Notes: a model not told the origin generated them from the sequence alone. DNA of 64,000 nucleotides from a bacterium (GCA_020852295.1 JADZBC010000016.1:294-64293); one strand, 5' to 3'. Counted from the first letter of the stretch, positions 6,252 through 32,974 are shown. Translations and numbers: made by a program.

Positions 6252-6327
6252 TGGTCAGGGTGACAGGACTTGAACCTGCGACCTCACGGCCCCCAGCCGT
6301 ACGCGCTACCAGCTGCGCCACACCCTG
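6252..6327 (-). tRNA. tRNA-Pro (anticodon GGG), CCA encoded
   Basis: Hand-folded cloverleaf: 7-bp acceptor CAGGGTG/CACCCTG, D-stem GCGC/GCGC, anticodon stem TACGG/CCGTG, loop CTGGGGG with G37, T-loop TTCAAGT; total 76 nt. Confidence 0.8.
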
Positions 6328-6409
6328 ATAAAGATATTGTACTATGTTTCTCGATCAAAAATAGCTTTCAACTTTACATGATTGTCATGCTAAGGCATAA
6401 TACTTATGT

Positions 6410-6952
6410 ATGTTTAAGGTTGTTAAATCGCTGGAAGCACTCGAGATAGTGGGCCAAAAGAACGTCAGCTCACTCTCTGAGTTGGTGGACCACAAGCAGC
6501 TTCGATCGGTCTTTGCCACCAGCTCCGCTGGGGCGACCCGCCGTCGCATCATTGATACAATGGCAATTCTGTCGCGGCAGGGCTTTGTCTCGGTTGGCCA
6601 GCTCGACGGCGAAAAGATCTATAAGCTCTCAGCCAAAGGCAAAAAACATCTAGCCACATATAGTATCCTCAAGACGGGTGTGGTTCGGCCCGCTCGCTGG
6701 GATGGTAACTGGTACCTGGTCACGTTTGATATTCCGGAGCGCCAGAAGGTTGCCCGCAATAGTCTTATCAGTCATCTGAAAAATCAGGGTTTTATCAATT
6801 ACACCAAGGGTATCTGGATTCTTCCGTATAATCCGAAACGTTTCTTGACTGATCTCGCCCAGCATCTCGGTCTTACGTCCCAGATCAAGCTTATTGAAGC
6901 CCGCAAAATCGACGACGAGGCAAGATATAAGCGTCACTTCCGGCTCAAATAA
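6410..6952 (+). CDS. Hypothetical protein: N-terminal wHTH-like region and C-terminal Cas2/VapD-like or PaaX-like segment
   Basis: C-terminal segment WYLVTFDIPERQKVARNSLISHLKNQGFINYTKGIWILP follows the Cas2/PaaX_C-like pattern (hydrophobic-x-YDI...R...L...G...Q.SV). No Cas1 or CRISPR array nearby. Confidence 0.35.
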   Translation: MFKVVKSLEALEIVGQKNVSSLSELVDHKQLRSVFATSSAGATRRRIIDTMAILSRQGFVSVGQLDGEKIYKLSAKGKKHLATYSILKTGVVRPARWDGNWYLVTFDIPERQKVARNSLISHLKNQGFINYTKGIWILPYNPKRFLTDLAQHLGLTSQIKLIEARKIDDEARYKRHFRLK

Positions 6953-7161
6953 AAAACAGGCACCTTGGGCGCCTGAGAATGAATATAATGCCGGCTCCGC
7001 TCAAGAACCGCGTTCGTCACAACTCTTCCTGGACCACGCCAGGTGGGTGTCCGCAGCATGCACGCCTATAGCGAGCAGCAATCTAGGTCTCCCAAAATGA
7101 TACTTAAGCAGAAAAGTTGCGACGTTAAAGTGCGAGAGCAGCAGAGCTTACGCTCAGTATA

Positions 7162-7797
7162 TCATAAAATACCGCGACCCAGCAGGAGTGAGGCAAGGCC
7201 ACCAATGATACCCCCGAGGACTGGCTGCAAGAAGCTATAGAACAAGAAGAAGATGAAAAATACGCCGATTAGTCCGGTTGATTCAAACCGATCCATAGCA
7301 TCGGCCAGCGGATCGGGCGCAATTGCATAAATCAGCCGTGAACCGTCCAGGGGTGGGATCGGGATCATGTTAAAAACAAAAAAGCCCAGGTTAATCAGTA
7401 CGAAACCGACCAATATCTCATAGCCGAGCCCCGTGATTGCGAAGACACGCAGATAGATTGCCACAAACGCCGCCATCAAGAAGTTACTCAGCGGACCAGC
7501 AAACGCCACCATCGCAGCTCCGAATTTGCCGTATTTGACCGCATACGGGTTGAATGGTACTGGCTTAGCGGCTCCGAACACAATTGGTGAGCCAACCAGG
7601 ATGAGGATAATCGGCAACAGGAGTGTCAGGAAGGGATCAATGTGCGCCATCGGATTAAGCGTCAGTCTACCCTCTCGCTTCGCGGTCACATCTCCAAGGG
7701 CATGGCCTGCCCAAGCATGGGAAAACTCGTGAACCGTGATCACGATACCGACGATTCCGATATAAGCTAGGATGCTAATGAGGTTAAGATTTGCCAT
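7162..7797 (-). CDS. Site-2 protease family (M50) zinc metalloprotease, multi-pass membrane
   Basis: HEFSH (HExxH) motif inside the first TM region; several hydrophobic helices; size typical of short M50 proteases. Confidence 0.7.
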   Translation of the reverse strand: MANLNLISILAYIGIVGIVITVHEFSHAWAGHALGDVTAKREGRLTLNPMAHIDPFLTLLLPIILILVGSPIVFGAAKPVPFNPYAVKYGKFGAAMVAFAGPLSNFLMAAFVAIYLRVFAITGLGYEILVGFVLINLGFFVFNMIPIPPLDGSRLIYAIAPDPLADAMDRFESTGLIGVFFIFFLFYSFLQPVLGGIIGGLASLLLGRGIL

Positions 7798-18031: not shown

Positions 18032-18054
18032 ATGCCCATCGGGGCATTTTTTTA
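18032..18054 (+). terminator. Rho-independent terminator after tRNA-Val
   Basis: Hairpin ATGCCC-ATCG-GGGCAT followed by TTTTTTT. Confidence 0.6.
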
Positions 18055-18765
18055 TTCTGAAATCATTCGCTGCATCATGCAGAAAAATAAACACTTCGCC
18101 TGATGAAAATTGGTAAGATCTATGCCGGTCTGAGCTTGAATACGGCGCAGTCGGTATGACAGCGTATTGCGATGCGTATTGAGTCGACGAGCCGCCTGCG
18201 CCAAGTTGAGATCGGCACTAAGAACCGCCTCCATGGTGCGCTTCAGGACAGGATCAGCCCAGATAGGCCCGCCGATAAGACCCAATAATTGTCGTGTATC
18301 CTCCGGCGCCATGCCACTCATATTAAGCCAAGCTAATGCTGTCGTAAGCTCACTACAAACACCCTGCGCTGGTCGTGCCTCGTGCAGGCGAGCAAACAGC
18401 CTCAATACTACGCCAAGCTGATCATGCGTATATAGTTTTGAGTGCACGCAATAGATAGAGTGCCGATATCGCGCAAGAGCCTCCCCTATACTAGTTATGA
18501 CGCCATCTTGTTGTGCTGCATCAACCAGTAGCCAATAGCGTCGGCGATCTACTGTGTAGCCACCAATATGCATCGCAAAAGCACCTGAGTCCAGCATCCT
18601 TTCGATCTGCTGTTGTGCCTCACTAGACTGCACAGCCACCAACATAGGCCGGTATCGGTCCACCTCGGTAACTGCTGAGTTTAGAAAGTGCGCCAAATCA
18701 AGATCTGAGACTGGACTGTCTGGCTCAATTGCAGCCTGTACTAGTTCAAACGGTAGCCTAACCAC
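18052..18765 (-). CDS. PucR/CdaR-family transcriptional regulator (C-terminal HTH)
   Basis: C-terminal LNLAQAARRLNTHRNTLSYRLRRIQAQTGIDL matches the PucR-type HTH (HrNTl.YRL). Confidence 0.55.
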   Translation of the reverse strand: MVRLPFELVQAAIEPDSPVSDLDLAHFLNSAVTEVDRYRPMLVAVQSSEAQQQIERMLDSGAFAMHIGGYTVDRRRYWLLVDAAQQDGVITSIGEALARYRHSIYCVHSKLYTHDQLGVVLRLFARLHEARPAQGVCSELTTALAWLNMSGMAPEDTRQLLGLIGGPIWADPVLKRTMEAVLSADLNLAQAARRLNTHRNTLSYRLRRIQAQTGIDLTNFHQAKCLFFCMMQRMISE

Positions 18766-19513
18766 TTATCTTACCGACAATTAGCTCAGACAGTATAACT
18801 GCATCTACGAAATTTACTGGGTTTAAACCTGTTAGCTGATAAAGCTTGGTGAGACGATAAAGCACGGTGTTGCGATGTAGGCCAAGCTGACGAGCAGCGT
18901 CCGTCAGGTTCATGTTTTCATCCAAAAAACACTTCAAGGTAACAAGTAGTGTCTGATCACTGAGCCAAGCCGACGACACTTTCTTCTCTTCAGCTAGTGC
19001 TCCGTTCAGTATTGCACTCAACCCCTTGTACGATCGAGTTGCATGAAGCCTCTTACCAAAGATCATAGCTAAGCCTTCTTCCACCAGACTCGCTCGATAC
19101 ATTTCAGCAAGCCTCCGGAGCGACAACATCAATTCATTCGCCTTGTGTGACGAGCTGTTATTCCAGGTCAATATCAGATCATTTCCCAAGACCGAATGAA
19201 TTATCAACTGCTGCCGACCAGAAATTTTCCATCTTTTTTGTTGATTTATTTTCAACGTTTTTATCGGCATAGAGTCACTAATAACACCCTGTAAAATGAG
19301 CCTGCTTGAAGGCTTTAGACCAATCGAGAGTAGTGCAGCGTGGAGCTGGCGCTCTACTCTGCTCTGACGCCCGGTCGAGCATACAAGACTTGCCATCAAA
19401 ATCCGTATCTTGAGCTGCTCTTCAGTCGCTGGTTCGATGCGCTTTGCGTGCATCAAGCTACCTAGTGTGCGTTCACCCTGCCCAAACTTTCTTGCAATAG
19501 CAGTACTGGTCAT
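18758..19513 (-). CDS. PucR/CdaR-family transcriptional regulator (paralog of the upstream gene)
   Basis: C-terminal LTDAARQLGLHRNTVLYRLTKLYQLTGLNP. Confidence 0.55.
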   Translation of the reverse strand: MTSTAIARKFGQGERTLGSLMHAKRIEPATEEQLKIRILMASLVCSTGRQSRVERQLHAALLSIGLKPSSRLILQGVISDSMPIKTLKINQQKRWKISGRQQLIIHSVLGNDLILTWNNSSSHKANELMLSLRRLAEMYRASLVEEGLAMIFGKRLHATRSYKGLSAILNGALAEEKKVSSAWLSDQTLLVTLKCFLDENMNLTDAARQLGLHRNTVLYRLTKLYQLTGLNPVNFVDAVILSELIVGKISG

Positions 19514-19574
19514 TCTTGATACCTTATTACTACCCAGCTTACCATCTGTTATTTTTTGTCGACAAGCATGTCAA

Positions 19575-20801
19575 CTATGTAGCCTTGCCGAAGCCAACTC
19601 TATCAGGCACGATATCGGCCCCCAGCCAGCTTGCCCGGCCAATTGCCCTGTTGCCGAAGCGGTCCAGTATCTCATCGCCTGCTCGACTGATAGCCTGACT
19701 ACCCTGCTCGCCAAAAATACTGAGTTGGCCCTCAGGTACTAAATCAAAAAGAGTTAGGCCAAGCCGACGCACCGGCCATAGCCCCCAGTACTGCCTCAAC
19801 AGATCAAAGCTTGCAAGAATAATCTCGTTATCCCCCGTCATTCTCATGGTGCCGCGCGCCACGGCCTTAACCCCTTGATGATATTGGTTGCCACCAAGCC
19901 ACAACATGAGTGATCGTGCGACCATTTCGTGCTGACGAAGCCGACGCCCAGCTTTAGAGGCGAGCTTAGTGAGAACGGTCCGTACACCGCTCTCATCGAC
20001 CAGGGGTTCACCTAAAATAGTCGTCTGGTGACCAATTGAACGAGGCGGTTTAAGCTGCGGCTCGAAGTCCACCTCATAGCCACGCATCCTCAAAAACCAC
20101 TTCTGGCCAACCAAGCCAAAATGACGAACCAAGAAATCTATCGGTGCATGGTACAGATCAAGCGTAGAATATATTCTGACTGCATACAGTCGACGCAACA
20201 TACGATAGTTTATGCCAGTTAACTTCATAAGTGGCAATCCAGCATAAAACCGCTCTAGATCGCTAATTTCCAGTAATTTAAAGCCATTGGGCTTTGCTGA
20301 GCTTGCCGCCATCTTAGCCAACCACATGTTTGTACTGACCCCAATCGAACACTTTATATAGTCACCAACACCATGGGCAAAAGTGCCTTTTATTGCTTTT
20401 TGTAAAGCAAAAATTGATTGTGGACGTCGTGCATATGACGGAATTATGAGGCATGCCTCATCGACACTTTTTGGCAAAACTTTACAGTACGTATCTTCGA
20501 GGATGGTCATTAAACGCCGGCTAATTGATCGATACAGCGCAGCATTGTCACGCACCAACGCAATTTCGGGGCACCGTCGGCGCGCCTCTGCAATGCGTAC
20601 ACCGACGCGAATACCAAGCCGTTTTGCCTCATAGGATGAGGCAATAACTGCGCAACCATCACCAAGACAAGGACAGACTGCCACCGGACGATTACGTAGC
20701 TCTGGTCGAAACTGCTGCTCGACAGAGGCGAAGAAAGCATCCATATCGACATACATCGTACTCAAGGCAGCGGGTGGTTTCTCTAAAAATTGATCTAGCA
20801 T
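19575..20801 (-). CDS. dinB: Y-family DNA polymerase (DNA polymerase IV-like)
   Basis: N-terminal MYVDMDAFFASVEQ catalytic motif and palm/finger regions (SIGVSTNMWLAKMAS). The start could be the internal MYVDMD Met. Confidence 0.75.
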   Translation of the reverse strand: MLDQFLEKPPAALSTMYVDMDAFFASVEQQFRPELRNRPVAVCPCLGDGCAVIASSYEAKRLGIRVGVRIAEARRRCPEIALVRDNAALYRSISRRLMTILEDTYCKVLPKSVDEACLIIPSYARRPQSIFALQKAIKGTFAHGVGDYIKCSIGVSTNMWLAKMAASSAKPNGFKLLEISDLERFYAGLPLMKLTGINYRMLRRLYAVRIYSTLDLYHAPIDFLVRHFGLVGQKWFLRMRGYEVDFEPQLKPPRSIGHQTTILGEPLVDESGVRTVLTKLASKAGRRLRQHEMVARSLMLWLGGNQYHQGVKAVARGTMRMTGDNEIILASFDLLRQYWGLWPVRRLGLTLFDLVPEGQLSIFGEQGSQAISRAGDEILDRFGNRAIGRASWLGADIVPDRVGFGKAT

Positions 20802-20877
20802 ATGAGATATAATACTAGAATAAACCTGTTTTTACAAACAAAATACGAACAGTATTTATGACTCCCCTAGATGGGTT

Positions 20878-22107
20878 CTACTCGTGACGCAGGGCTTCGA
20901 TGGGATTGATATGGCTAGCACGGCGAGCTGGGAAATACACCACCACAAAACCGACAATAGTAACAAACACGAAAGTAGCGGCAATGATCCATGGCTGCAA
21001 GTCAAAGGCTGTAATGCGATCAGGCACTCCCCGGCTCGCCGCCCAGCTATTGAGCACCAAATCAACGACTCGACCGCTCATATAGGCGCCAATCAGGCCG
21101 ATGAGGCCACCAAGGTGCGAGAGCGTAATCGACTCCATGATGAACAGCCGGCGGACATCACGCTGACGAGCACCAAGCGAAATCATCAGTCCAATTTCGC
21201 GAGTACGCTCCAGCAGCGAAATGGTCAGAGTGTTGAACATACCCAAGACAGCGATGATCATGCCGATGCCACCGAATCCAACAAGTATAAAGTTGAACAG
21301 GTTAAATATCTGGTTAATCTGGTCGAGCGTATCAAGTGGCGAACTAGATGTCAGACCAAAAGCCTCGATCTGCTTCTTGAGTTCAGGCACAGACTGTTGT
21401 GATTTTGCCAACACTTTTAATTGACTAGCGTTGACCACTCCTGAAGCAAGAAAACCTTTGCTATCGAGATAAACTTCCGCACCAGAGCCGCTCTCAATCA
21501 CGCCGACGATCTGAGCTGAAAGTGTAATATTCTTCTTAGCCCCAGCTTTGGTGTCATCAACGATTTCAACATTCACATTAAGATCCTTTTGCAGAGCAGA
21601 CTTTGTGTCGCTAATACCGACCGCTTTGAGAAGTGACAGATTCACCAAAGCTTGGCCGTCAGCTAGAGTCTGACCACTCCCCTCGACCACCTTAAGATTG
21701 CCGAGTTCGAGATAATCAGAGTCCACCCCAAAGACAATTGAGTCAGTCTTTGAGGTACCGATATTCGCCCGACCACCAAAATTGTATACCTTGGCCACCT
21801 TCTCAACTTCAGAAAGACTGGCAATGGATTTGACCGTCTCTGGATCAAGCTTAATAACCTTGGACTTCGTGGAGCTTACATCGATCGTTTTAACTGAGTT
21901 TGAGCCCACCACCTGCCGATTGACAAGCTTCTGGAGGCCCAGACCCAAAGAAACGAGAAATACGATAGAGCCAACCCCGATGACGACACCAAGTACTGTC
22001 AACGAGGTGCGCAGTTTCTTGAAAAACAGGTTCTTCAGTGACATATGTGCAAGAATCTGTGGCTTGATCACGCCGCGCAAACGATGGTGCTTGATCATTT
22101 CCTCCAC
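20878..22107 (-). CDS. ABC transporter permease, MacB/FtsX type, with a large extracytoplasmic domain between TM1 and TM2
   Basis: TM1 near the N-terminus, an extracytoplasmic domain of about 230 aa, then three C-terminal TM helices with an FtsX-like LERTREIGLMISLGA motif. Confidence 0.7.
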   Translation of the reverse strand: MEEMIKHHRLRGVIKPQILAHMSLKNLFFKKLRTSLTVLGVVIGVGSIVFLVSLGLGLQKLVNRQVVGSNSVKTIDVSSTKSKVIKLDPETVKSIASLSEVEKVAKVYNFGGRANIGTSKTDSIVFGVDSDYLELGNLKVVEGSGQTLADGQALVNLSLLKAVGISDTKSALQKDLNVNVEIVDDTKAGAKKNITLSAQIVGVIESGSGAEVYLDSKGFLASGVVNASQLKVLAKSQQSVPELKKQIEAFGLTSSSPLDTLDQINQIFNLFNFILVGFGGIGMIIAVLGMFNTLTISLLERTREIGLMISLGARQRDVRRLFIMESITLSHLGGLIGLIGAYMSGRVVDLVLNSWAASRGVPDRITAFDLQPWIIAATFVFVTIVGFVVVYFPARRASHINPIEALRHE

Positions 22108-22895
22108 TACACCCTCCTCTTGCGTTTGACGGGTGATTTTTTGGCATCGATGGCATCTGACATGGTGTTGCGCGCCTTGGTGAGTGTGGCTGATGACGCC
22201 TGATAGTGACCGCTATCTTCGGTCACGACACCGTCCTTTATGCTAATACGGTGATCACTGAGTGGAAGGTACTCGAGGTTGTGGGTAACTAACACTACAG
22301 TGGTATTGAAGTCATCGCGAAACTGCTGCAGCAGGTTCATAACCACATCGCCGTTCTTGGTATCTAGGTTGCCAGTTGGCTCATCCGCAATCAGCAAGGT
22401 CGGACTTACAACAGTAGCCCGCGCCAAGGAGATGCGCTGCTGCTGACCACCAGAGAGGAGCGTCGGGCGGTAATTGGCAAATTTCTCCAGACCAACCCGT
22501 GCGAGACTCAACTTTGCCTCACCAATTGCCTCGCCCTTCGATCGCCCCGTCAAATACAGCGGTAAGGCGATGTTTTCGAGCGCCGACAAAGATGCAACCC
22601 AGTAGTTGCTCTGATAGACCATACCGATCGTGTTGGCACGATAACGAGCCCGTTCGTCGGCGTTGAGCGCGTAAATATCGACTCCATCAACCATCACCTT
22701 TCCGGAAGTTGGTCGCTCGAGGCCAACCAAGACATTGAGTAATGTTGACTTACCCGAACCAGATGGACCGTAGATGATCGTGAAGCTGCCCCGCTTCACC
22801 TCGAAGTTGAGATCACGCAAAACCATGCTGGGACCTTCAGCGGTCTCAAACTGCTTATTAACGTTGGCAAATGATATGAGTACGTCGTCTTTCAT
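22107..22895 (-). CDS. ABC transporter ATP-binding protein (MacB/LolD-like)
   Basis: Walker A GPSGSGKST, signature LSGGQQQR, Walker B LLIADEPTGNLD; overlaps the start of the permease gene. Confidence 0.8.
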   Translation of the reverse strand: MKDDVLISFANVNKQFETAEGPSMVLRDLNFEVKRGSFTIIYGPSGSGKSTLLNVLVGLERPTSGKVMVDGVDIYALNADERARYRANTIGMVYQSNYWVASLSALENIALPLYLTGRSKGEAIGEAKLSLARVGLEKFANYRPTLLSGGQQQRISLARATVVSPTLLIADEPTGNLDTKNGDVVMNLLQQFRDDFNTTVVLVTHNLEYLPLSDHRISIKDGVVTEDSGHYQASSATLTKARNTMSDAIDAKKSPVKRKRRV

Positions 22896-22950
22896 CGATA
22901 GCTAGCTTTTCCCATATTATAGCATAAGCATTTTCGGCAAAGGAGCAATT

Positions 22951-25900
22951 CTAGCTCGAAAATCCAAATATGCGACGGAGGGCGTTAAAGATAATACTAA
23001 GCACACTGTCGGTGGCTCGCCCGACAATTGCCGACTGGGCTTCACCTTGGGTCAGATTTTTTGCCCTATCGCGAGACAGCGGTTGAACCTGATAGACATT
23101 GGATGGCGACAGGTCAGAAATTACCACCACGTGATCAGTTGTCAGCTTGTCGTCTTCAGCGGTTCGGCTCGTAAAGTTGCCACTATTGCCAACCCCGTAT
23201 GCGACCGCCGAAGTTGCCGGCTCATCTGTCTTCCAGGAAACGACGATCTGACCCCGAGCCTCTGAACCGCTGCCCTTCACGGCAACCTCCACTGATATAT
23301 CGCTAATCTTTGGTGAGCGAGTATCAAGCGCCGTACGGAAGTTCTGCTCATCAGATACTGCCGTGTTGCCAAACTCGTCACGAGAACGCGCTACGAGCGT
23401 GTAGTCACTATCGTCAAGCAGACCGCGCACGACAATTTCATGACTGGTGGTCCGGCCTGAGCTCAGCTCTTCAGCCTGTTTCTGCCCTTTTGGCCCATAA
23501 ACTATCTCGGTTGAAGCGGGGACATTTGTGTCCCAGCTAATCTTAAGTGTACTTGATGGCTCGCCGGCAACTGGTCGAAGAGACAGGTTGCTAATCCGTG
23601 GTCGGGCTAACGTCGTGAATGAGTTGGTATTGCCCTCGTACTCATTGCCATCAGCATCGACGCTGTTGATCTTGTAGAAATACTTGGTGCCGTCGTCTAG
23701 GCCATCGAGCACCACCGAGTAGGTACTTTCGTTGGCGGAAGTGTTTATCTTCTTAACGCCGCCGAATCCATCGCTTTTACCGTAGTAAATGATTGCTTGA
23801 GAAGCAGCTTTGACTGTAAAGTTTGTTGTAGCTTTATCTACATTTATCTGGGTTGTGGTGATTTCCTTCACTAGCGGTGCGGGTAGCGTCGTAAATGATA
23901 CTTCTTTACTGATCCCCGTATTGCCATCTTCGTCAGTCCACTTGGTGACAAAGTAGTAGGTAGTGCCCGGCTGGAGGTTGCTCAGCGTTACTGAGTGATT
24001 CGTCACCTGGGCTGAGCTGCCGACCTCTTCGGTGGCGTATTGGCCAGGATTTTTCCCAATCGAAACCTTACTGTCAGACTCACGATCGGTAAACCATACA
24101 ATCGTAGCTCTGCGGTTACCGATGTTCTCAGCGCGTGGCTGGTTAGTATCGGCTGTTAGATTTGCGGGTGAGGTGAAGCGTCCCGATGGCTTCTTGCTCA
24201 CAGTATTGCTCGCCACACTGCAGCTACCGGCATCGTCGCAGGCCTTAACCTGGTAGTAGTAAAGAACCTGACTCAAGCCAGAATCGATAAAGCTGAGATT
24301 GGTCGGCGAGGTTGAGCCTACCTGGGTAAAGTTTACATTGTCAGTCGATCGATAGACCCGATAGCTCGCTATCCCCGCACCTGGCTGTGTAGCTTCATTC
24401 CAGGATAATGCCAACTTCCAGGCCGATGTAGCTCGAATTGATATATCGGACACATCCAGGTTCTGCGGTGGACCCGGCGCCACGGTCGATGCCGAGAAGG
24501 TCACGCTCGCGTACTGAGTGCCATCAAAGTTGCCTGAGAGGTCTCTAGAGGACACATACATCGTGTTTACTCCCTGCTTGGTCGCATAGGCGCCTGAAGC
24601 AAGCTGGGTAATGCCCTCGCCTGTCCAGTTACAGTTGCTGCCATCCGCCGCGATCGGTGTATTGACGCTCCAGCAGTAGTTGATCGTGCCCGTACCGCCA
24701 AACGACATGGCTGGCGGGTCCCAGGTAAAGGCAAAATCATTTGTGCTATTACTACTCGGTGTAACCTGCAGATTTGTCGCGGCCCCGGCTGCTTGGTAGG
24801 TGATGGTGAAAATGAATCCCGGAGGACCCGAGTTAATGATATTGCCCGCATTATCAACCAGCGCAATGATCATACCGTTGATGCCGAAGAGTCCACCTCC
24901 CGCAATGCTGTCGTCTAGGCGTGCAGCATCCGCCACTGCCGTGCTGAGCGTGCCGTCAGTATACGGAAACACATCGCTCGTATCGGAAGCTTGGCCTGAG
25001 GTGTGGTTCTTACCATACCAGTTATTGTCATTCTCGCCGCAGCCTGAAAAACCATCTATCAATCTTGCAACACAGTACTTAAAGCCAGCAATACCAGATG
25101 TAGCATCAAACGATGGCGCCATCGGTAACCAAGTTGCAGATACGATTTTGCTATTTGTAACCGCTTTTGGCGGGGTGACGATTGTAGCGAGGGTTGGGTC
25201 GTCATTGTCATAGCGGAAGCTGATCACAGTCGCTGCGCTCGCCAGGTTGCCGGAGTTGTCGATGGGTCGCACCCCGACATAGTAGGTCGTTCCATTACTG
25301 AGGCTGGCCATTGATGAAATTGCCGCCAGATCGAGTGAAGTGCCGCTAATCGCGTACTCACAGGCGCCACCAGTATTGAGTGGGCTGGGATCCCCAATCA
25401 TATCTTTTGTCAGGCCATCGGGCGTAGTCGTATTTTGAGTGAGTCCAATGCAATAACCACCAACACCACTACCACCAATATTATCGGTGGCTGCCGACCA
25501 GCTCAGGTACGGCTTCTGATTGACCCAGGCATTGTTGGCCAGTGACTGGCCACCGTTAAAACGGTTCATATTGATTGAGCTGAGGATATTTGGCCCGGTG
25601 CTATCATTGCCGTGCTCAATCGTTACGGAGCTGACGGCTGCATCATGGGTACCATCATCAGAGAGCACTATCTGGTATTGCATATACTGCTGGCCAATAC
25701 CATAGCAACTCGAGCTCGTTATCGCGTCTCCGCTTGTCATATTTGAGCAATACCGAAAGTCAGTTGCTCCACTCATATCCGAACTAGCTGACGTACGTAT
25801 CCGAACTGTCTTTATGCCCGATCCGCTTGAATCGTAATTTAGATTGCCGTAGAAAGCATTGGCGCCCATATCAATGACCGATGAGGTCAATGTGCCATAC

Positions 25901-27312
25901 CGACCTGCCTGCCATTGGTAAACTCCTGTCTGCGAGCTGACGGCTGTTGAGCGAGCATACAGATACAGATTGCGGATCTGTATCTGTCGCCAGTCGGTCG
26001 AGAAAAGCAGAGCCGAGTCAAACTGCTGGGTGTTATTCGGGAAGAGCGGTCCAATTTGTGAGTAGTTTGCGCCGTTGTCAGTGCTGTAATACAGCTCTAC
26101 ACCACCGCTCAGCCTATTGATCAAGCGAAAACGCACATAGGCAGACTGACTGAACTGGGGTGAATTCTGCGGTGCAAAGTATGCCGACAGATTAGGGTCT
26201 CCCTCAAATCCAGCAATATTTACTGTTGAAACGTACCATTTCGCATTGGCACCACAATTATTTTGATCAGGTACGAGATTTGTGCCAACAGTTATTTGGT
26301 CATTTGGAGCCGCCGAATTCACGGTAAGCTTGAAATAGTTACCAGGACTGCCTTGCGAACAGTCGTTGAGAGAGCTAAAGTCCTGCCGATAGTCAAACTC
26401 CGTCACAAGATCGGTATCCGATAGACTGTACTGATAGTACGGTGACTGGGCGGTCAGGTTACATGCGGGGCCGGTCGTTGCGACACCACCATTGAAATCC
26501 GTTTCATTGCAACCATACCAGTAAGGGTTACCGTTATTACCGCTTAGTTCGTTAAAGTGATCTGCAAATAACATTGTATTATTTACATCAGAAACTGAAT
26601 TTGCGTTTGCGTTACCAAAATATACATACAAATTTGTGCTACCTTGTGGCAAGCTAGGGATCTTTACATAAACATCGGCCGACTGTCCGTTGTAGTCATG
26701 CGCAAGAAAATGACTGTAGTCTGTATCGCCCGCCTCATTGGTAAATCGTAGGTCTCGAAAATCTGACTGCATTCCGGTATCAGTTGTGATCGTAATTTTC
26801 GCCTGATAATTGGTAAAGGTTTGACTGGCCGTGTTTTTTACCGTGATAAGCTTACGGGCCGTCCAGTTTGTGTCACAATTTGGCGTGTTGCACCAATTGG
26901 CATGGTCAGAGGCACCAATACTCACGCTGCCAGCTGCTGGTACAGTATTATCAGCTTCAGCGTACTGGTTGACCGTGCTGCTACCTACCCCACCCGACCA
27001 GTCAGCTTGAACAAACTGATCAAATGCACCGGCAACTCTGGTGAAACCAATCATGGCAATGAGCGACATACCGATATACATCGCAAAAATACCGACGTGT
27101 ACCTTGTGGTGGTGTCGATGATTGTGCCAGCGGTCATACCAGCCAACTCGCTGACGGATCCGTTGATGTGGCCGATGTACGAGCACATGATGGGCGCGGC
27201 CAACACCATGCACGACCAAGTGAACTACCTCGGCAGGAGCCGCAATAGCATGGTGGGCAATGTGGTTAACTTTTCGCTTTATTCGCTTATGCTTTTTCAC
27301 CATTACCATCAT
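22951..27312 (-). CDS. Giant (1453-aa) N-terminally membrane-anchored surface protein, paralog B: His/Trp-rich cytoplasmic head, DUF2341-like plus LamG-like domains, C-terminal FN3 array
   Basis: His-rich N-terminus, then the TM helix IFAMYIGMSLIAMIGF. Conserved DWSGGVG...AEADN and a W..R..ItI...DlRF...vYVKiP...YYGN block resembling DUF2341. At least four FN3-like repeats at the C-terminus (e.g. PGPPQNL...YYYQVKACD and TLSNLQPGTTYYF). About 50% identical to the upstream paralog. Confidence 0.7.
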   Translation of the reverse strand: MMVMVKKHKRIKRKVNHIAHHAIAAPAEVVHLVVHGVGRAHHVLVHRPHQRIRQRVGWYDRWHNHRHHHKVHVGIFAMYIGMSLIAMIGFTRVAGAFDQFVQADWSGGVGSSTVNQYAEADNTVPAAGSVSIGASDHANWCNTPNCDTNWTARKLITVKNTASQTFTNYQAKITITTDTGMQSDFRDLRFTNEAGDTDYSHFLAHDYNGQSADVYVKIPSLPQGSTNLYVYFGNANANSVSDVNNTMLFADHFNELSGNNGNPYWYGCNETDFNGGVATTGPACNLTAQSPYYQYSLSDTDLVTEFDYRQDFSSLNDCSQGSPGNYFKLTVNSAAPNDQITVGTNLVPDQNNCGANAKWYVSTVNIAGFEGDPNLSAYFAPQNSPQFSQSAYVRFRLINRLSGGVELYYSTDNGANYSQIGPLFPNNTQQFDSALLFSTDWRQIQIRNLYLYARSTAVSSQTGVYQWQAGRYGTLTSSVIDMGANAFYGNLNYDSSGSGIKTVRIRTSASSDMSGATDFRYCSNMTSGDAITSSSCYGIGQQYMQYQIVLSDDGTHDAAVSSVTIEHGNDSTGPNILSSINMNRFNGGQSLANNAWVNQKPYLSWSAATDNIGGSGVGGYCIGLTQNTTTPDGLTKDMIGDPSPLNTGGACEYAISGTSLDLAAISSMASLSNGTTYYVGVRPIDNSGNLASAATVISFRYDNDDPTLATIVTPPKAVTNSKIVSATWLPMAPSFDATSGIAGFKYCVARLIDGFSGCGENDNNWYGKNHTSGQASDTSDVFPYTDGTLSTAVADAARLDDSIAGGGLFGINGMIIALVDNAGNIINSGPPGFIFTITYQAAGAATNLQVTPSSNSTNDFAFTWDPPAMSFGGTGTINYCWSVNTPIAADGSNCNWTGEGITQLASGAYATKQGVNTMYVSSRDLSGNFDGTQYASVTFSASTVAPGPPQNLDVSDISIRATSAWKLALSWNEATQPGAGIASYRVYRSTDNVNFTQVGSTSPTNLSFIDSGLSQVLYYYQVKACDDAGSCSVASNTVSKKPSGRFTSPANLTADTNQPRAENIGNRRATIVWFTDRESDSKVSIGKNPGQYATEEVGSSAQVTNHSVTLSNLQPGTTYYFVTKWTDEDGNTGISKEVSFTTLPAPLVKEITTTQINVDKATTNFTVKAASQAIIYYGKSDGFGGVKKINTSANESTYSVVLDGLDDGTKYFYKINSVDADGNEYEGNTNSFTTLARPRISNLSLRPVAGEPSSTLKISWDTNVPASTEIVYGPKGQKQAEELSSGRTTSHEIVVRGLLDDSDYTLVARSRDEFGNTAVSDEQNFRTALDTRSPKISDISVEVAVKGSGSEARGQIVVSWKTDEPATSAVAYGVGNSGNFTSRTAEDDKLTTDHVVVISDLSPSNVYQVQPLSRDRAKNLTQGEAQSAIVGRATDSVLSIIFNALRRIFGFSS

Positions 27313-27315
27313 ACC

Positions 27316-30300
27316 CTATCCTCCGAACCCAAAGATACGACTGAGCGCGTTAAAGATGATACTGAGGATACTATCTGAAGCTCGACCAACGATGGCAGAC
27401 TGACTTTCGCTCATGGCTTTGTTTCGTGCCTTATCGTACGAGATTGCTCGTACCTGATAGACACTTGATGGCGATAGGTCTGAGAGTACCACGACATGGT
27501 CTTTGGTGAGACGACCGTCTTCTGCTGTCTGCGAAGTAGCTGCCGACACATCCGTACCGATCCCATAGCCAACAGCTGAACTGGTTGGCTCATCAGTCTT
27601 CCAGGAAACGACGACCTGTCCGCGCGCCGATGCTCCGGTACCGCGTACGCCAACCTCTACATTGAAGTCTGATATCTTCGCGGGCCGGGTATCGAGTGCT
27701 GTGCGAAAGACCTGTTGACTTGATGTAGCGAGATTGCCGCTCGCATCACGGGAACGTGCGACGAGGCTATACTCTGTATCGTCCTCAAGATTACGGATGA
27801 TGAGCTCATGCTTGGTCGTAAGAGACGAATTGATAAGATCTTTTGGCGTAGCACCAACTGGTCCATACGAGACTTCGGAAGACGACGGCACGTTGGTCTC
27901 CCACGTCACTCGTTGAGTGCTCGATGGCTCTCCCTCGACTGTGTCAAAACGCAGATTTTGTATCTTTGGCAGTGGCAAAGTCGTGAAGGAATAAATGTTA
28001 CCAAAATACTGATTCCCATCTGAATCCGCCCCGTCGATTCTGAACAAATATTTTGTACCGTCGGTCAATTCAGGGAGTTCGACAGCATAGCTACTTTCGC
28101 GGGTCGATGTATTGAGTGTTTTGATACCACCGAACGTGTCGGTGCGACCGTAGTATATCTTGACAGCACTCGCCGAGCTGACAGTGAAGTTGATCGTTGC
28201 GCGATCAACGTTAATGTTAGTGGCGGCTGCTTCCTTGACGGTCGGTGCCGGCAACGTCGTAAAGCTGACTTCTGGTGAAACACCCGTATTGCCGTCGGTG
28301 TCTGTCCATTTGGTGACATAGTAGTACTTTGTACCTGGATTGAGATTATCGAGATTGACTCGGTGACTCGTGACTTGGTCTGAATTGCCGATCTCTTCAG
28401 TTGCATACTGTCCACTTGTTGTGCCAATCGCAACACGACTGTCTGATTCTCGATCGGTAAACCAGACAATACTAGCCTTTCGCGCTGTTATGTTTTCGGC
28501 ACGCGGCTGGTTCGCATCGCTGGTAAGGTTCGGTGGTGTCGTATACTTACCTGTTGGCTTCTTGCTTGAGATATTGCTTGCTACACCACAAGCATCCGCA
28601 TTGTCACAGGCCAGGACTTTATAATAGTACGTAACTTGGTTGAGACCCGAATCAATGAAGCTCAGGTTACTTGCCGAGGTAGATCCGACTTGAGTGAAGG
28701 TGCTATTGTCGGTTGACCGATAGATCTTGTAAGAGCTAATCCCTGCCCCGACGCTGACCGGCGCATCCCATGACATGGCAAGCCGCCAGGTACTTGTCGC
28801 CTTAATCGAGGCGTCTGCCACATCGAGATTGGTTGGTGCGCCAGGTGCTACCGTACTTGCTTCAAACTCAACCGTCGCAGCCTGGGTGCCATCAAAGTTG
28901 CCGGTATCATCCTTACCAGATATATACATGATGTTAGTGCCCTGCAGCGTTGCATATGGCCCGGCGGCAAGCTGTGTGATGCCTTTGCCGGTCCATTTAC
29001 AGTTACTGCCATCCTGGGCGATAGGCTCATTCACACTCCAGCAGTAGTTAATGTTTGACGGTGCCCCAACAAAGAAGCCCGGCTGATCCCAGCTAAAACT
29101 AAAGCTGTTTGCACTATTTGAGGTGGGGCTGACCGTCAAATTTGTTGGTGCACCGGCAGGGTGCTGCGTAATAAGAACCACTGCGTTGCTGCCATTATTG
29201 GCATTCCATAGGTTGCCGGCATTGTCGACGCCGACATAGTATACAAAGTTCACTCCGACACTAAACGGCCCACCGAGGTCAAGTCGATCGGCATCCGCCT
29301 CACTGGTTGAGGCGATGCCCTCGGCAAACGTAAAAACATCCGAGACGTCATCAATCCGGCCAGAGGTGTGATTCTTGCCATACCAGTTGTTGTCATTTTG
29401 AGTGCAGCCAGAAAAACCAAGATTTGCATTGGTGACGCAGTATTTAAAGCCAGCGAAGCCTGAGTCTGCCTCGATAACATTACCAAGCGTCAGCCAAGTA
29501 GCAGAAAACACCGCGCTATTTGTGGCAGCTGGCGGTGCGTTAAAGAGTGTCTGAACATCTGGAGCAACAGTATCGAGCTTCCAGCTCCGCTGTACAGAAC
29601 CAGTTGAAACATTGCCGGCATAATCAATGCTGCGCAGCGTTATATAGTATGTACTGCCATTATTCATCGAGCCATGACCGACCGAAGCAAGGTCAAGATT
29701 GGTATTGGCCGTAGCATACTGGCAAGCACCACCTGTATTAAGTGGACTTGGGTCAGTAATTATCCCCTTTGTAGTAGCTGGATCGTCGGTATTATTATCA
29801 CCAATATAGACACAGTATCCGGCAACCCCGGAACCACCGAGATTATCGCTCGCAGCATCCCAGCTGATGTATGGATTTTGGGTATTGATCCAGCCACCAT
29901 CTGCTATTGCTGTACCACTTGGTGATTTTTTTACAACGATATTTGCTGGTGTATCTGGAGCGTCCGGATCATCAAGGTACTCAATATCGACACTTTGCAC
30001 CGCGATATCACCACCTGCAGGCTGACTCATGAGTATCTGATACTGTACGTAGGGCTCGTTTGGCTCTACGCAACTCGATGTACTTATCGCTGCTCCCGAA
30101 TTAATAATATTGCAACTATCAAAGCCCTGCGCATCACTCATGTCGGAGTTTTGGGCAGTTCGGATGCGAACACCAACTACCCCACCACCAGATTGACCAA
30201 GAGTTAACGTTCCAAAGTATGGCTTCGTGCCCGCCTGGAAGGTGGCAGAGCTCAATGAACCGATAGCTCCACCCTGAGACTGCTCAAGACCAAAGAGCAC

Positions 30301-31665
30301 ATTAGTGCTGGCACCAGTCTTGTAGATCCGCACCGTATCAAGATTGAAGTTCGTATTAGTATAAGCGGTACCCACATATATGGTCGGCGCGAGTGGACTT
30401 CGGCTCATCGTAGGGGTATTGGGTGCAGTATACGTATCCCAGTTTACCCAGTTATTGCTCGCGTGATACTTTGCCCCTGTAGCTGTCGGCTCGATCGCAT
30501 AGCGACGCCACCAATTTGTCTGGCCTTCCTGTAGGCCCTGCATATCGGCAGGGTTAATGCTGTAGGGTTGGCCGTTCAGATAATCGTAGAAGGCGCCATA
30601 ATAATTACTATCGTTACCCGCTTCACAGCCAAAATAAGCACTGTGTTGATCGACAGCATTTCCCCAATCAATCACATTATACATGTTGGGCTGGAATGAT
30701 GTGCAAGTGCCGTTACTCTGATTTCCTAGCGACATAACGTTGACGCTAAACTCGAACCGCTTAGGATCGTTTCGGTCAATCTGATCGGTTATTGGGGTTA
30801 AGCCGCCGTTACCAGCACTATTGCCAGCGCTGTTATCAAAATGCAGTACTCCGTCGCTCACGCTTATCGCCGGATCAAGCGAGGCGCTTACATTCCACTT
30901 ACCGAGATCGATGCTATTACCATTGAAGTCATCGTAAAAAGAAAATACATCCTGGTCCCAGCTGGAGCCTGCGGCAGAATTACCATAATACATGTAGATC
31001 TTAGTAACCCCCTGTGCGAGCGTTGGGATTTTAACAAAGACCTCGTCCGATGTGGCGTTTTGAGTGTTCTCGTGCCACATTGACAGGAGTGTGCCATCTG
31101 TCAACGTGAAGCGCAGATCGGCAAAGTCAGACTTCATATTGCCGTTGTATGGCACGGTAAACTTCACTGGATAGTCTGTGCGGGCCTGATCACTATTGAT
31201 GTTAATCTGCTGCCGGTACTGCCAGTCACTATCACAGGAGCTAGGAATGTTACACCAGTCACTGATCGTCGTCGCGCCGACTGTGAGCTGGTTTGGCGTA
31301 CTAGTGACGATGTTATCAGCTTCCGCGAACTGATTTGAGTGATTAGTGCCGACACCACCACTCCAATCAGATTGGAGCCAGTTATCAAAGGCCTGGGCAA
31401 CGCGCCCAAAACCAAGCGACAACACCGCCATGACTGCCACGCTCACGACAAGGGCCGAATAGTGTACAACTCGATGACGAGGCTGTTCGTGCCAATTACG
31501 ATACCACTCCAGATGACGCACCAACCCCTCGTGGGTATTGTGGACGATCACTTCATGGCCCTTTTTGATTACCCTTACAGGAATATATAAAACACCTATC
31601 AGGCCAGAAGCCGTACCGGTACTGGACATTTTTGTCTTACTTTTTCTTTTCGGGTCTTTGGACAC
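27316..31665 (-). CDS. Giant (1449-aa) N-terminally membrane-anchored surface protein, paralog A of the same family
   Basis: Same architecture; shared strings include DNNWYGKNHTSG, NYCWSVN.PIA.DGSNC.WTG.GITQLA and the C-terminal QSAIVGRA.DS.LSIIFNAL.RIFGF. Its stop lies 3 nt from the start of paralog B. Confidence 0.7.
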   Translation of the reverse strand: MSKDPKRKSKTKMSSTGTASGLIGVLYIPVRVIKKGHEVIVHNTHEGLVRHLEWYRNWHEQPRHRVVHYSALVVSVAVMAVLSLGFGRVAQAFDNWLQSDWSGGVGTNHSNQFAEADNIVTSTPNQLTVGATTISDWCNIPSSCDSDWQYRQQININSDQARTDYPVKFTVPYNGNMKSDFADLRFTLTDGTLLSMWHENTQNATSDEVFVKIPTLAQGVTKIYMYYGNSAAGSSWDQDVFSFYDDFNGNSIDLGKWNVSASLDPAISVSDGVLHFDNSAGNSAGNGGLTPITDQIDRNDPKRFEFSVNVMSLGNQSNGTCTSFQPNMYNVIDWGNAVDQHSAYFGCEAGNDSNYYGAFYDYLNGQPYSINPADMQGLQEGQTNWWRRYAIEPTATGAKYHASNNWVNWDTYTAPNTPTMSRSPLAPTIYVGTAYTNTNFNLDTVRIYKTGASTNVLFGLEQSQGGAIGSLSSATFQAGTKPYFGTLTLGQSGGGVVGVRIRTAQNSDMSDAQGFDSCNIINSGAAISTSSCVEPNEPYVQYQILMSQPAGGDIAVQSVDIEYLDDPDAPDTPANIVVKKSPSGTAIADGGWINTQNPYISWDAASDNLGGSGVAGYCVYIGDNNTDDPATTKGIITDPSPLNTGGACQYATANTNLDLASVGHGSMNNGSTYYITLRSIDYAGNVSTGSVQRSWKLDTVAPDVQTLFNAPPAATNSAVFSATWLTLGNVIEADSGFAGFKYCVTNANLGFSGCTQNDNNWYGKNHTSGRIDDVSDVFTFAEGIASTSEADADRLDLGGPFSVGVNFVYYVGVDNAGNLWNANNGSNAVVLITQHPAGAPTNLTVSPTSNSANSFSFSWDQPGFFVGAPSNINYCWSVNEPIAQDGSNCKWTGKGITQLAAGPYATLQGTNIMYISGKDDTGNFDGTQAATVEFEASTVAPGAPTNLDVADASIKATSTWRLAMSWDAPVSVGAGISSYKIYRSTDNSTFTQVGSTSASNLSFIDSGLNQVTYYYKVLACDNADACGVASNISSKKPTGKYTTPPNLTSDANQPRAENITARKASIVWFTDRESDSRVAIGTTSGQYATEEIGNSDQVTSHRVNLDNLNPGTKYYYVTKWTDTDGNTGVSPEVSFTTLPAPTVKEAAATNINVDRATINFTVSSASAVKIYYGRTDTFGGIKTLNTSTRESSYAVELPELTDGTKYLFRIDGADSDGNQYFGNIYSFTTLPLPKIQNLRFDTVEGEPSSTQRVTWETNVPSSSEVSYGPVGATPKDLINSSLTTKHELIIRNLEDDTEYSLVARSRDASGNLATSSQQVFRTALDTRPAKISDFNVEVGVRGTGASARGQVVVSWKTDEPTSSAVGYGIGTDVSAATSQTAEDGRLTKDHVVVLSDLSPSSVYQVRAISYDKARNKAMSESQSAIVGRASDSILSIIFNALSRIFGFGG

Positions 31666-31792
31666 CAGGTTAACCTTGAGCGTTATCTATTAGGACTATT
31701 ATAAGATGCCCCTTATGGTTACGCAAGCTCAAATAGCAACGACTTTTTTCCACATACCGCAAGAGTTTTCCACTGGTATTTTTTATAGTTAT

Positions 31793-31810
31793 ATGACAAT
31801 ATATTGTCAT
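31793..31810. promoter_or_regulatory. Perfect 18-bp palindrome (NrdR-box-like) overlapping the nrdR start codon
   Basis: ATGACAATATATTGTCAT is exactly self-complementary; its AT-rich core ACAATATATTGT resembles NrdR-box operators. It sits in the divergent region between nrdR and the giant-protein operon. Confidence 0.45.
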
Positions 31811-32252
31811 GAAATGCGCATATTGTGGTTCAACAAAAACCGAGGTATTCAACTCTCGATCAACGCGTAGTGGCACGCAGATTTGGCGACGTCGTCGCTG
31901 TCAGGATTGTGGCGAGGTAATGACCAGCTACGAACGTCCTGACCTCTCTGCAGTCCTCTACATCGATACAGGGGCCAAAAAGAAGACGCGCTATAGCCGG
32001 GCAAAACTCCTCATCAGCCTGGTGCGTGCCTTCGAGCAGAGCAACAAGCTCACTGACCTAGAAAACATTATCGACACAATTGAGCAGCGGCTTATGGCAC
32101 TCAAGACAGAGTATGTCACTTCGGCCGAACTGACCGAGGTAGTCTTGCGCACGATCAAGCCAGTCGATACCGCTGCATTCGTCAAATACCTTGCTGCATA
32201 CGGTGATATTGCCTCCTCGCGTGAACTCAACAAACTCATGAAAAAATACTAG
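31809..32252 (+). CDS. nrdR: Transcriptional repressor NrdR (zinc ribbon plus ATP-cone)
   Basis: MKCAYCGSTKTEVFNSRSTRSGTQIWRRRRCQDCGEVMTSYER is the canonical NrdR N-terminus; 147 aa. Confidence 0.85.
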   Translation: MKCAYCGSTKTEVFNSRSTRSGTQIWRRRRCQDCGEVMTSYERPDLSAVLYIDTGAKKKTRYSRAKLLISLVRAFEQSNKLTDLENIIDTIEQRLMALKTEYVTSAELTEVVLRTIKPVDTAAFVKYLAAYGDIASSRELNKLMKKY

Positions 32253-32314
32253 CTCCAGATTAGGAGCTAGTATTTTTTACATAGTTGTTATGCTAAAGCA
32301 TGAAGATCAAGTTG

Positions 32315-32974
32315 CTATTCGCCAGCCTTTTCTTGCTCACCCTCAGCGGCCTCTTCACTGCCCTCTTCGGCAGGAATGTTTTCCACGATCTCTTCATCGA
32401 GTGCTTCGAGCTCTTCGTCACTGCGTGGCGGCTCGACTCGCGCAACCAACTCTTCGGCATCAGTCAGTAGCTTCACATCAGCCGGTAGTTTGACGTCAGC
32501 CACGGTAATTGTCTTCTCGAAGTCATCTAGTACTGAGATATCAACCTCAATCTGTTGAGGAAGATTGCCAGGAAGAGCCTCAATCTCGAGCGCCTCCAGG
32601 TTAGTTATAAGGCTACCATCCTGCTGAAAGACAGCGGTCGATTCACCGACGAAATGCAGTGGTACTTCTGTACGGATCACCTCATCCATCTTCACCAGAT
32701 AGATATCAGCGTGGATTGGCTCTGATTTGACGACATCAAAAGCAACGTCCTGTATAAGCACATTGTACTTCTTACCATCAAGCGAAAGCTCGAGGATACT
32801 ACTGTAGCCTGCCTGATTCAAGATACGGCCAAACTCCTTGGCATCAAGCGTAATGTTCTTGTTCTCGGCGCCACGGCCATACAGCACCGCAGGCACCTTA
32901 CCTGATTCGCGCAGTTTTTTTACAGCCTTTCCTGCTTCTTGACGCAGGTCAGCCGACAAAATGATCTTATCCAT
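32315..32974 (-). CDS. rplY: 50S ribosomal protein L25, general stress protein Ctc form
   Basis: N-terminal LSADLRQEAGKAVKKLRESGKVPAVLYGRG matches L25, with a two-domain Ctc-type body and an acidic C-terminal tail. Confidence 0.8.
   Translation of the reverse strand: MDKIILSADLRQEAGKAVKKLRESGKVPAVLYGRGAENKNITLDAKEFGRILNQAGYSSILELSLDGKKYNVLIQDVAFDVVKSEPIHADIYLVKMDEVIRTEVPLHFVGESTAVFQQDGSLITNLEALEIEALPGNLPQQIEVDISVLDDFEKTITVADVKLPADVKLLTDAEELVARVEPPRSDEELEALDEEIVENIPAEEGSEEAAEGEQEKAGE

Follow-up and report, generated by a model that had tools for sequence, protein, structure and literature searches.

What holds two giant surface proteins and an ATP-binding cassette (ABC) transporter together in one bacterial operon? 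The question is raised by a stretch of bacterial DNA of 64,000 nucleotides (GCA_020852295.1, JADZBC010000016.1:294-64293; the whole stretch is called the window here, and positions are counted from its first letter), in which positions 20,878 to 31,665 encode two tandem proteins of about 1450 residues, an ABC ATPase and a permease of the MacB/FtsX type. An original prediction, made from the sequence alone, took this operon for a candidate novel envelope system in which the transporter would either act mechanically on the giant proteins or export them. The bacteria of the Candidate Phyla Radiation (CPR, or Patescibacteria), in which we found the operon to be widespread, account for much of the diversity of bacteria and spend their lives attached to other microbes; we know of no attachment structures in them beyond type IV pili and a few adhesins. 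As described below, giant, ATPase and permease form a cassette that is conserved as a unit, and it is the C-terminal stalk and tail of the giants that have diverged together with the transporter. The cassette is probably an ATP-driven system, undescribed so far, by which long fibrils on the cell surface are mounted or controlled; its transporter is of type VII, and the giants would be a new class of partner for such transporters.

A conserved three-gene cassette

Giant A (27316-31665; 1449 residues) opens the operon with a GTG start; like the other three genes, and like every feature of giants or permease located below, it lies on the minus strand. Its product is identical to an NCBI entry named 'DUF2341 domain-containing protein [bacterium]' (P0001). 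Giant B (22951-27312; 1453 residues), a tandem paralogue of the same architecture, starts 3 nt past the stop of giant A and shares 48% identity with it across the full length by BLASTP, in keeping with the two head-to-tail paralogues, 3 nt apart and about 50% identical, that had been predicted. A gap of 55 nt separates giant B from an ATPase of the MacB/LolD/FtsE-like nucleotide-binding domain (NBD) class (22107-22895; 262 residues), and this gene overlaps by 1 nt with that of a type VII, or MacB-fold, permease with MacB_PCD and FtsX domains and four transmembrane (TM) segments (20878-22107; 409 residues). The coordinates from open reading frame (ORF) calling bear out the position and strand originally given for the ABC pair.

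A genome scan seeded with an alignment gave 157 confirmed matches in 74 loci, nearly all of which are labelled Candidatus Saccharibacteria or Saccharimonadia. Four of these loci stop at a contig edge downstream of the giant; in all of the 70 informative loci, genes for an ATPase and a permease come directly after the giant in the same orientation, and these are orthologues with 45-70% and 43-56% identity, respectively, to those of the window. The genes are tightly packed, with a spacing between giant and ATPase that is usually -29 to +61 nt and an overlap between ATPase and permease of 1-44 nt. When the ORFs of 77 loci were clustered, the giant was present in 77, the ATPase in 73 and the permease in 72, and the next family occurred in 12. 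Since just these three ORF families are common to the loci and the flanks vary, it is the cassette that is conserved and not its surroundings, and the three genes make up a functional unit. No membrane-fusion protein was found in or near the cassette, either by this clustering or in the Pfam-annotated neighbourhoods. Sampling in the reverse direction led to the same picture: both of the two permease homologues chosen (P0134 and P0089) have an ABC gene and a LamG/FN3 giant of 2022-2079 residues upstream. Most cassettes have one giant; tandem giants occur in at least nine loci (L003, L005, L009, L010, L011, L013, L017, L018 and L020), and several contigs bear two separate cassettes. The linkage of giant, ABC and FtsX-type permease, which the original prediction had put forward for checking in related genomes, holds in Saccharibacteria, and giants standing routinely without an adjacent ABC were found neither in these 70 loci nor in the distant contigs L004, L081, L083 and L084 discussed later.

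Some cassettes have additional members. A CheY-like single-domain receiver of 121-147 residues abuts or overlaps the permease stop in six cassettes of the kind referred to below as type 1 (T1; L008:16117-16491, and in L009, L010, L013, L017 and L020), and another is encoded between giant and ABC in a distant CPR cassette (L084:13389-13832); the window has none. The presence of such a receiver in the operon suggests that the action of the transporter is regulated, and not constitutive, in some lineages. Directly upstream of the T1 giants of about 10 loci there are bitopic proteins of about 200 residues with an N-terminal TM segment and a C-terminal 'YIDYFDDK.VA..YF' domain (for example L005:2060-2752, L008:9317-9850, L009:9390-10019, L010:9390-10004 and L011:4322-4927), and the window cassette has no adjoining counterpart of this family. 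Two typical Saccharibacteria-type cassettes, L040 (CAZFAO010000011.1) and L046 (JACKGS010000006.1), are labelled 'uncultured Burkholderiales' and 'Candidatus Nomurabacteria'; the labels probably reflect mistakes of binning or classification in the metagenome-assembled genomes from which the contigs come.

Anatomy of the giant proteins

The anatomy of the giants was worked out from an alignment of 11 homologues, together with the N- and C-termini of about 50 more. Residues 1-92 of giant A (31390..31665) consist of a basic, His/Trp-rich n-region with the motif W-Y-x-x-W-H and a hydrophobic h-region of about 20 residues, which ends in AQA/FD, the stroke marking the putative cleavage site. The n-region of the giants is generally basic, often long and His-rich, and the W-Y-x-x-W-H motif is seen in about half of the homologues. 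A small-x-Ala sequence directly follows the hydrophobic segment, in the form of AGA/FD in giant B and of VSA/FS, ALA/LD or AFA/AD elsewhere; in the homologues read, Ala is invariant at position -1, and a small or aliphatic residue occupies position -3. Because the invariant Ala at -1 and the small residue at -3 are what is expected for signal peptidase I, the N-terminus is probably an extended, cleavable Sec signal peptide and not a stable anchor. The original prediction had read it as a TM segment with a cytoplasmic head; the hydrophobic segment, with its A-x-A, would instead be removed.

The mature protein would begin with a cap, 'FD..QSDWSGGVG' (residues 93-130; 31276..31389), which is conserved in T1 giants and has a low predicted local distance difference test (pLDDT) score in the AlphaFold2 (AF2) model; distant CPR giants have a related cap, 'TFTWTQNDWSGG', after their signal peptide. 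Then comes a DUF2341 beta-sandwich (residues 180-259; 30889..31128) with a pLDDT of about 85-90. Pfam PF10102 confirms the predicted presence of this domain in both giants, with E values of 3.4e-15 in A and 7e-14 in B; the scores, 56.7 and 52.5 bits, exceed the gathering score of 23.4. Residues ~260-465 (30271..30888) adopt, as a fold-level result, a ConA-like jelly roll of the LamG/GH16/PL7 type. The LamG-like domain of the original prediction stands at this level of fold; as a Pfam LamG domain it was rejected, the window giants giving no LamG match even at E<=1. A reading of the jelly roll as a GH16 enzyme was also set aside, since no catalytic motif was seen by eye, without a formal motif scan, and giants A and B are only 19% identical here. 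A sequence search of the PDB with the giant gave no match.

A beta-rich middle with repeated '..D.AGN..' motifs, conserved in the homologue alignment, extends over residues 566-940 (28846..29970). It has no Pfam match, fn3 being only marginal, and may consist of Ig-like domains; it is also in the middle that similarity to the longer type 2 (T2) giants begins (q540-1447). It leads into about five FN3 or Pur_ac_phosph_N-like domains (residues 941-1425; 27391..28845), among which Pfam recognises, in each of the two proteins, fn3 and three copies of the FN3-like Pur_ac_phosph_N. Each giant is a long rod of some 8-9 beta-sandwich domains with a fast-evolving, lectin-like head at the N-terminus. The identity between A and B rises along the rod: the ConA-like domain is at 19%, DUF2341 at 44%, the middle at 52%, the FN3 array at 63% and the tail at 79%.

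The tail ..IVGRASDSILSIIFNALSRIFGFGG (residues 1426-1449 of giant A, 27319..27390; 22954-23025 in giant B) closes the protein. As had been predicted, both giants end their FN3 array in SIIFNAL.RIFGF. The consensus ..IVGRAsDSiLSIIFNALsRIFGF finishes 1-6 residues before the C-terminus in 48 distinct giants, which were picked by a regular expression for the tail, so that its presence there is by construction; its conservation in 11 of the 11 aligned homologues is independent support. The tail is amphipathic, with a hydrophobic moment of 0.5-0.6, and AF2, using an alignment of 79 sequences, predicts a helix over residues 1433-1444 with a pLDDT of 62-67, next to a last FN3-like domain with a pLDDT of >90. 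This lower score suggests that the helix would not be packed on that domain. In 29 of the 48 giants the protein ends one residue past the conserved F-G, with no hydrophobic run of TM length and no terminal basic cluster. Searches of Pfam and NCBIfam found no sortase-type signal, TM segment or wall-binding domain in the giants, nor a match to any NCBIfam CTERM model.

The ABC transporter

The ATPase matches Pfam ABC_tran (E 1e-31), and its catalytic motifs, namely Walker A, the Q-loop, LSGGQ, Walker B with its Glu and the H-loop, are all intact. Its best NCBIfam matches are the NBDs of LolD, FtsE and MacB, every one of them under the cut-off. In the permease, MacB_PCD covers residues 34-249 (E 4e-17; profile positions 1-206 of 207) and FtsX residues 278-402 (E 1.1e-20), and hydropathy peaks mark the four TM segments at 38-56, 273-291, 321-339 and 374-392. 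The original prediction had given the permease an extracytoplasmic domain of about 230 residues; the MacB_PCD match and the hydropathy do place a large domain between TM1 and TM2, with a size of about 216 residues (~57-272; 21292..21939). The closest solved permease sequences are Bacillus subtilis YtrF (9o9x, E 3e-23), MacB (5lil, residues 21-408) and pneumococcal Spr0695 (5xu1). The NCBIfam scores are far under every equivalog cut-off, 32-34 bits against 225-255 for the FtsX models and 47.6 against 362 for lolCE. For this reason the pair, as judged by sequence, belongs to the MacB superfamily of type VII ABC transporters and yet to no named system; with these scores and with no membrane-fusion protein, it has not resolved into a standard LolCDE, MacB or FtsEX system.

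The MacB fold is informative as to what such a pair could do. Transporters of this fold have no transmembrane substrate channel (PMC11466899), and the known members act at the outer face of the membrane on partners or substrates (PMC11466899; PMC12646458). Movement driven by ATP is passed to the extracytoplasmic domain, by which FtsEX activates bound proteins and MacAB feeds a periplasmic conduit, and LolCDE, YbbAP-TesA and HrtBA draw species that are lipid-anchored or hydrophobic out of the outer leaflet (PMC11466899).

Two cassette lineages and their co-divergence

The giants of Saccharibacteria come in two types. T1 giants, which include those of the window, have the DWSGG cap and DUF2341 head and are about 1400-1660 residues long. 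T2 giants have a 'WDFS..ARLKAQNY' cap, Laminin_G_3 and propeller-like repeats in some 2040 residues. The C-terminal ~900 residues and the tail are common to both. In a neighbour-joining tree the permeases divide largely by cassette type, also where T1 and T2 share a genome or contig, and the tree of the C-terminal 400 residues of the giants mirrors that of the permeases. The pairwise distances of these 400 residues correlate with those of the permease at r=0.85, a value that is partly due to shared species history; for permease and ATPase, which should be parts of one complex, r=0.87. Two giants, L022 and L027, have T1 heads and fall within the T2 clade in both the stalk and the permease trees. 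Therefore, as far as the trees of these sequences tell, heads are exchanged between the lineages, and stalk, tail and transporter are inherited as one unit. Since the variable head sits on a conserved stalk, the C-terminus would be the end proximal to the machine and the head the distal one. The original prediction had suggested a docking of the FtsX domain on the N-terminal DWSGGVG module; with the heads swapped, and with stalk and tail co-diverging with the permease, the evidence points to the opposite end.

Breadth beyond Saccharibacteria

The cassette is widespread in the CPR and not peculiar to the window genome. With a profile of the last FN3 domain plus the tail, an exhaustive HMMER search matched 23,589 representatives when the threshold was E<=1e-3, of which 2,821 remained at E<=1e-30. 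Many of these matches are generic FN3 proteins, some with ends of the type IX secretion system type. Among the top 150 matches, 49 proteins of 962-6321 residues end in a related tail, ..S[VI][LI][QD][IL]I[IM].NFE.TFG[WF].., and of those 49, 13 have a signal peptide and a cap motif of the 'TFTWTQNDWSGG' type and two have the His/Trp motif. The genes are again found together: a giant of 2600 residues is followed by an ABC gene and a MacB permease in L081, one of 5134 residues by an ABC gene and permease in L083, and one of 2462 residues by a receiver domain, an ABC gene and a permease in L084. Two cassettes are present in L004, a contig from outside Saccharibacteria, and in the P0231 contig the order is reversed, with ABC and permease ahead of the giant.

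These distant cassettes have features of their own. The second cassette of L004 (L004:4042-9118) consists of a 1029-residue BNR/FN3 protein and a fused ABC-MacB_PCD-FtsX protein of 653 residues, and directly past the permease of the first there is a type IV pilin-like gene with a GFTLIE class III signal (L004:16812-17252). The ATPases of L081 (16204-17517), L083 (19200-20582) and L084 (13829-15142) are 437-460 residues long and have a helical C-terminal extension of about 200 residues with a repeated 'GG[IM]G[LM]' motif, which the 262-residue ATPase of the window lacks. In L080 (4066-8453), a tail-bearing FN3 giant is split into many ORFs, probably as the result of frameshifts in a long-read contig, and is followed by genes for a type IV secretion system pilin (TrbC-like), Big_5 and LamG.

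It is also worth asking if the giants are already known under another name. S. epibionticum, an oral Saccharibacterium, has two essential FN3/VCBS proteins, SEML1_0890/0891 (Cell 2023), which were considered as equivalents of the giants and rejected: they have 195 and 565 residues and unrelated neighbours, the gene table of strain ML1 lists no PF10102 or PF16656 proteins, and the MacB-type pair SEML1_0053/0054, a MacB_PCD/FtsX permease and an ATPase with a growth defect in transposon sequencing, has a tRNA upstream and not a giant (PMC10633639). A loss of the giant within the G1 clade, which is host-associated, is possible, and SEML1_0053/0054 may be at most a putative counterpart of the window transporter.

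A proposed mechanism and its rivals

The reading that we favour, and that we hold to be evenly poised between right and wrong, is that the type VII ABC pair is a mechanotransducer that docks, holds or releases the C-terminal end of a Sec-exported fibril. The giants would leave the cell via Sec through an unusually long His/Trp-rich signal peptide, which would then be cleaved. As they have no sortase signal, TM segment or wall-binding domain, the C-terminal helix and the stalk would be the only conserved candidates for their retention after export. The ABC pair would not carry the giant across the membrane; it would bind the stalk and helix at the giant's C-terminal, membrane-proximal end from the outer side of the membrane, and the binding and hydrolysis of ATP would load, hold or release this end of the giant, in a manner of 'hold and actuate' or of 'extract and release'. 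The transporter would serve as the membrane base of a surface fibril and as the switch for its assembly or detachment, and the fibril would most likely serve for attachment or for recognition of the host. If the permease is a homodimer, it would present two equivalent sites, in keeping with two copies of a single giant or with the tandem pair of A and B. One may go further and imagine a CPR-wide, ATP-powered surface machinery, in which the type VII ABC motor or base grips the C-terminal helix of the fibril and deploys, tensions or releases it during host attachment, with control by a CheY-like receiver in some lineages and host specificity set by the lectin-like heads; in this full extent the proposal is tentative and, in our view, doubtful.

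Several observations weigh against the docking of the C-terminal end. The contact between giant and permease is something we infer, and shared species history lies behind part of the distance correlation that points to it. The AF2 model of the head is of moderate quality (pLDDT 68.6, from 9 sequences), and the His/Trp motif, the hydrophobic segment and the DWSGG cap, all conserved, could be the true contact or anchor if the N-terminus is not cleaved. The linkage is also not absolute at larger distance, for there is no ABC/MacB pair within 8 kb of the L080 giant, and in L079 (WWE3) the gene downstream of the giant is MutS, the upstream side being missing from the contig. Lastly, S. epibionticum has MacB-type pairs and no annotated DUF2341/Pur_ac_phosph_N giant, from which it is clear that this type of transporter can exist without one.

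That last fact would suit a pump of an ordinary kind, for efflux, antimicrobial peptides or the handling of lipids, which would share a transcript with the giants for the sake of regulation or of envelope maintenance and have no physical coupling to them. Homologues are indeed named 'ABC-type antimicrobial peptide transport system permease' in the sources, and some loci have paralogues of lower identity (in L008 at 5221-7297). Such a pump has only a small probability in our judgement, given an adjacency in 70 of 70 loci whose flanks are not conserved, the company that the pair keeps with giants across very distant CPR lineages, even in reversed order, and the paralogous cassettes of single genomes, each of which keeps its own transporter co-diverging with the stalk. 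The other half of the original prediction was a dedicated exporter. A transporter that translocates the giant and reads the C-terminal tail as a secretion signal would draw on the resemblance of a conserved signal at the extreme C-terminus and an adjoining ABC to the logic of a type 1 secretion system (T1SS). Such an exporter is very unlikely: the permease has the MacB/FtsX fold (PF02687 plus PF12704) and not the ABC_membrane fold of T1SS, the MacB fold has no transmembrane substrate channel (PMC11466899), and the giants have N-terminal Sec-type signal peptides and no membrane-fusion protein.

Two further explanations accept a physical role for the transporter and place it differently. If the N-terminal segment stayed in the membrane as an uncleaved signal anchor, the giant would be a bitopic membrane protein, its TM helix and cytoplasmic His/Trp motif could bind the permease and the ATPase, the DWSGG cap could rest on the extracytoplasmic domain, and the C-terminal helix would be distal. 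It would then be accounted for that about half of the homologues, and among the distant CPR giants P0308 and P0387, have W-Y-x-x-W-H or H-x-x-V-H ahead of the hydrophobic segment, as would the wide conservation of the cap motif, and the extra C-terminal domain of about 200 residues in the distant ATPases could bind a cytoplasmic partner. However, the T1 giants of L005, L008, L009, L011, L013, L017, L018 and L020 have a short, ordinary n-region without the motif and have kept the cassette; the residues at -1 and -3 fit signal peptidase I; heads swap between cassette lineages and it is the C-terminal stalk that tracks the permease; and the cap is disordered in the model. Coupling through the N-terminus is thus unlikely, though it deserves some weight. 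Alternatively, the giants could polymerise head to tail, each subunit using its N-terminal cap to bind the C-terminal helix of its neighbour, with A and B alternating and the MacB-type transporter as the platform. Such a fibre would explain why both ends of the mature protein are conserved around a variable interior head, and it would go well with the common tandem paralogue pairs and with the pilin-like gene after the L004 cassette. It is distinctly unlikely, considering that most cassettes have a single giant, that T2 giants have the same tail and a different N-terminal motif (WDFS..), and that complementarity of cap and tail has no support.

Comparison with known systems

FtsEX, with its partners PcsB, EnvC, CwlO and RipC, shares with the window pair an FtsX domain of four TM segments, the large domain outside the membrane and an ATPase that is a protein of its own, and with the proposed docking of the giant the transmission of an ATP-driven change to a protein outside the membrane, in monoderm envelopes as well. 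It differs in that the window permease scores far below the FtsX cut-offs given above and has a full MacB_PCD in place of the FtsX extracytoplasmic domain. The partner in the cassette is also of another kind, a beta-sandwich rod of 1450-6300 residues with no coiled coil or hydrolase domain, encoded in the same operon. LolCDE, like YbbAP-TesA and HrtBA, has the MacB fold and plausibly works on the same principle, by which an element that is hydrophobic or amphipathic (in the giants, the C-terminal helix) is pulled out of or into the outer leaflet. However, the giants have no lipobox or Cys after the signal peptide (A-x-A is followed by F or L), there is a single permease gene and not a LolC/LolE pair, the lolCE score is low, the cassette has no LolA-like acceptor, and the organisms that have it are monoderm. 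The same PCD, and the closest solved sequences, are found in MacAB-TolC, Spr0693-0695, YknXYZ and YtrEF. Unlike the MacAB-type systems, the window cassette has no membrane-fusion protein of the HlyD/MacA family, and its conserved neighbour is a giant fibril protein; the function of YtrEF itself is not established.

T1SS differ in using a PF00664-type membrane domain, a membrane-fusion protein and a substrate without an N-terminal signal, whereas the window has a PF02687/PF12704 permease and giants with signal-peptide-like N-termini. The tail is comparable to LPXTG/sortase, PEP-CTERM, PGF-CTERM, MYXO-CTERM and T1SS signals insofar as a short, conserved C-terminal motif on large surface proteins goes with a dedicated processing or transport gene. 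It differs from the sortase-type signals in being an amphipathic helix of about 16 residues, 1-6 residues before the C-terminus, with no tripartite motif, TM helix or basic cluster, and its partner is a MacB-fold ABC, not a sortase-type transpeptidase or T1SS ABC.

Genome surveys have pointed to large secreted or membrane proteins of Patescibacteria with FN3, ConA-like and DUF2341 domains as putative adhesins or host-interaction factors, and the survey passages concerned do not mention the C-terminal tail, an ABC/MacB partner or the cassette (PMC11809585; PMC13059738). Cryo-electron tomography of the Saccharibacterium M. amalyticus has shown pili, a lance-like tube and a diffuse outer layer, which the paper does not link to the cassette genes. 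In full-text searches of the literature, with incomplete coverage, we found no description of the cassette, the tail or the giant-MacB linkage, in agreement with the original prediction that no system of this composition had been described.

Significance

The cassette is among the few multi-gene envelope modules that are conserved from Saccharibacteria to very distant CPR lineages, and in it the largest surface proteins that these tiny genomes encode are coupled to a membrane machine that consumes energy. Should this coupling be physical, it would add a new class of partner to the type VII ABC mechanotransducers (FtsEX, LolCDE, MacAB, YbbAP and BceAB), namely a giant beta-sandwich fibril recognised via a C-terminal amphipathic helix, and it would give a tractable handle on how host-binding fibrils are anchored and released in monoderm CPR cells. 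The variable heads on a conserved stalk may also offer a route to predicting host-range determinants from metagenomes.

Neighbouring genes in the window

No further MacB/ABC paralogue was found when the window was scanned. The promoter and terminator scan of 19400-32400 gave counts equal to the shuffled expectation and does not inform the operon boundaries, and the Rfam and tRNA scans of the window gave six tRNAs only, none of them tied to the cassette. The cassette is flanked by genes with housekeeping roles: dinB lies downstream of it, and nrdR, L25 and an MraY-like transferase lie upstream. Downstream of dinB, at 18052-19513 on the minus strand, there are two CdaR/PucR-type HTH_30 ORFs of 251 and 237 residues that overlap by 8 nt. 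The syntenic locus L003 has a single 521-residue protein with both HTH copies, and for this reason the pair in the window is either a split gene or the product of a frameshift.

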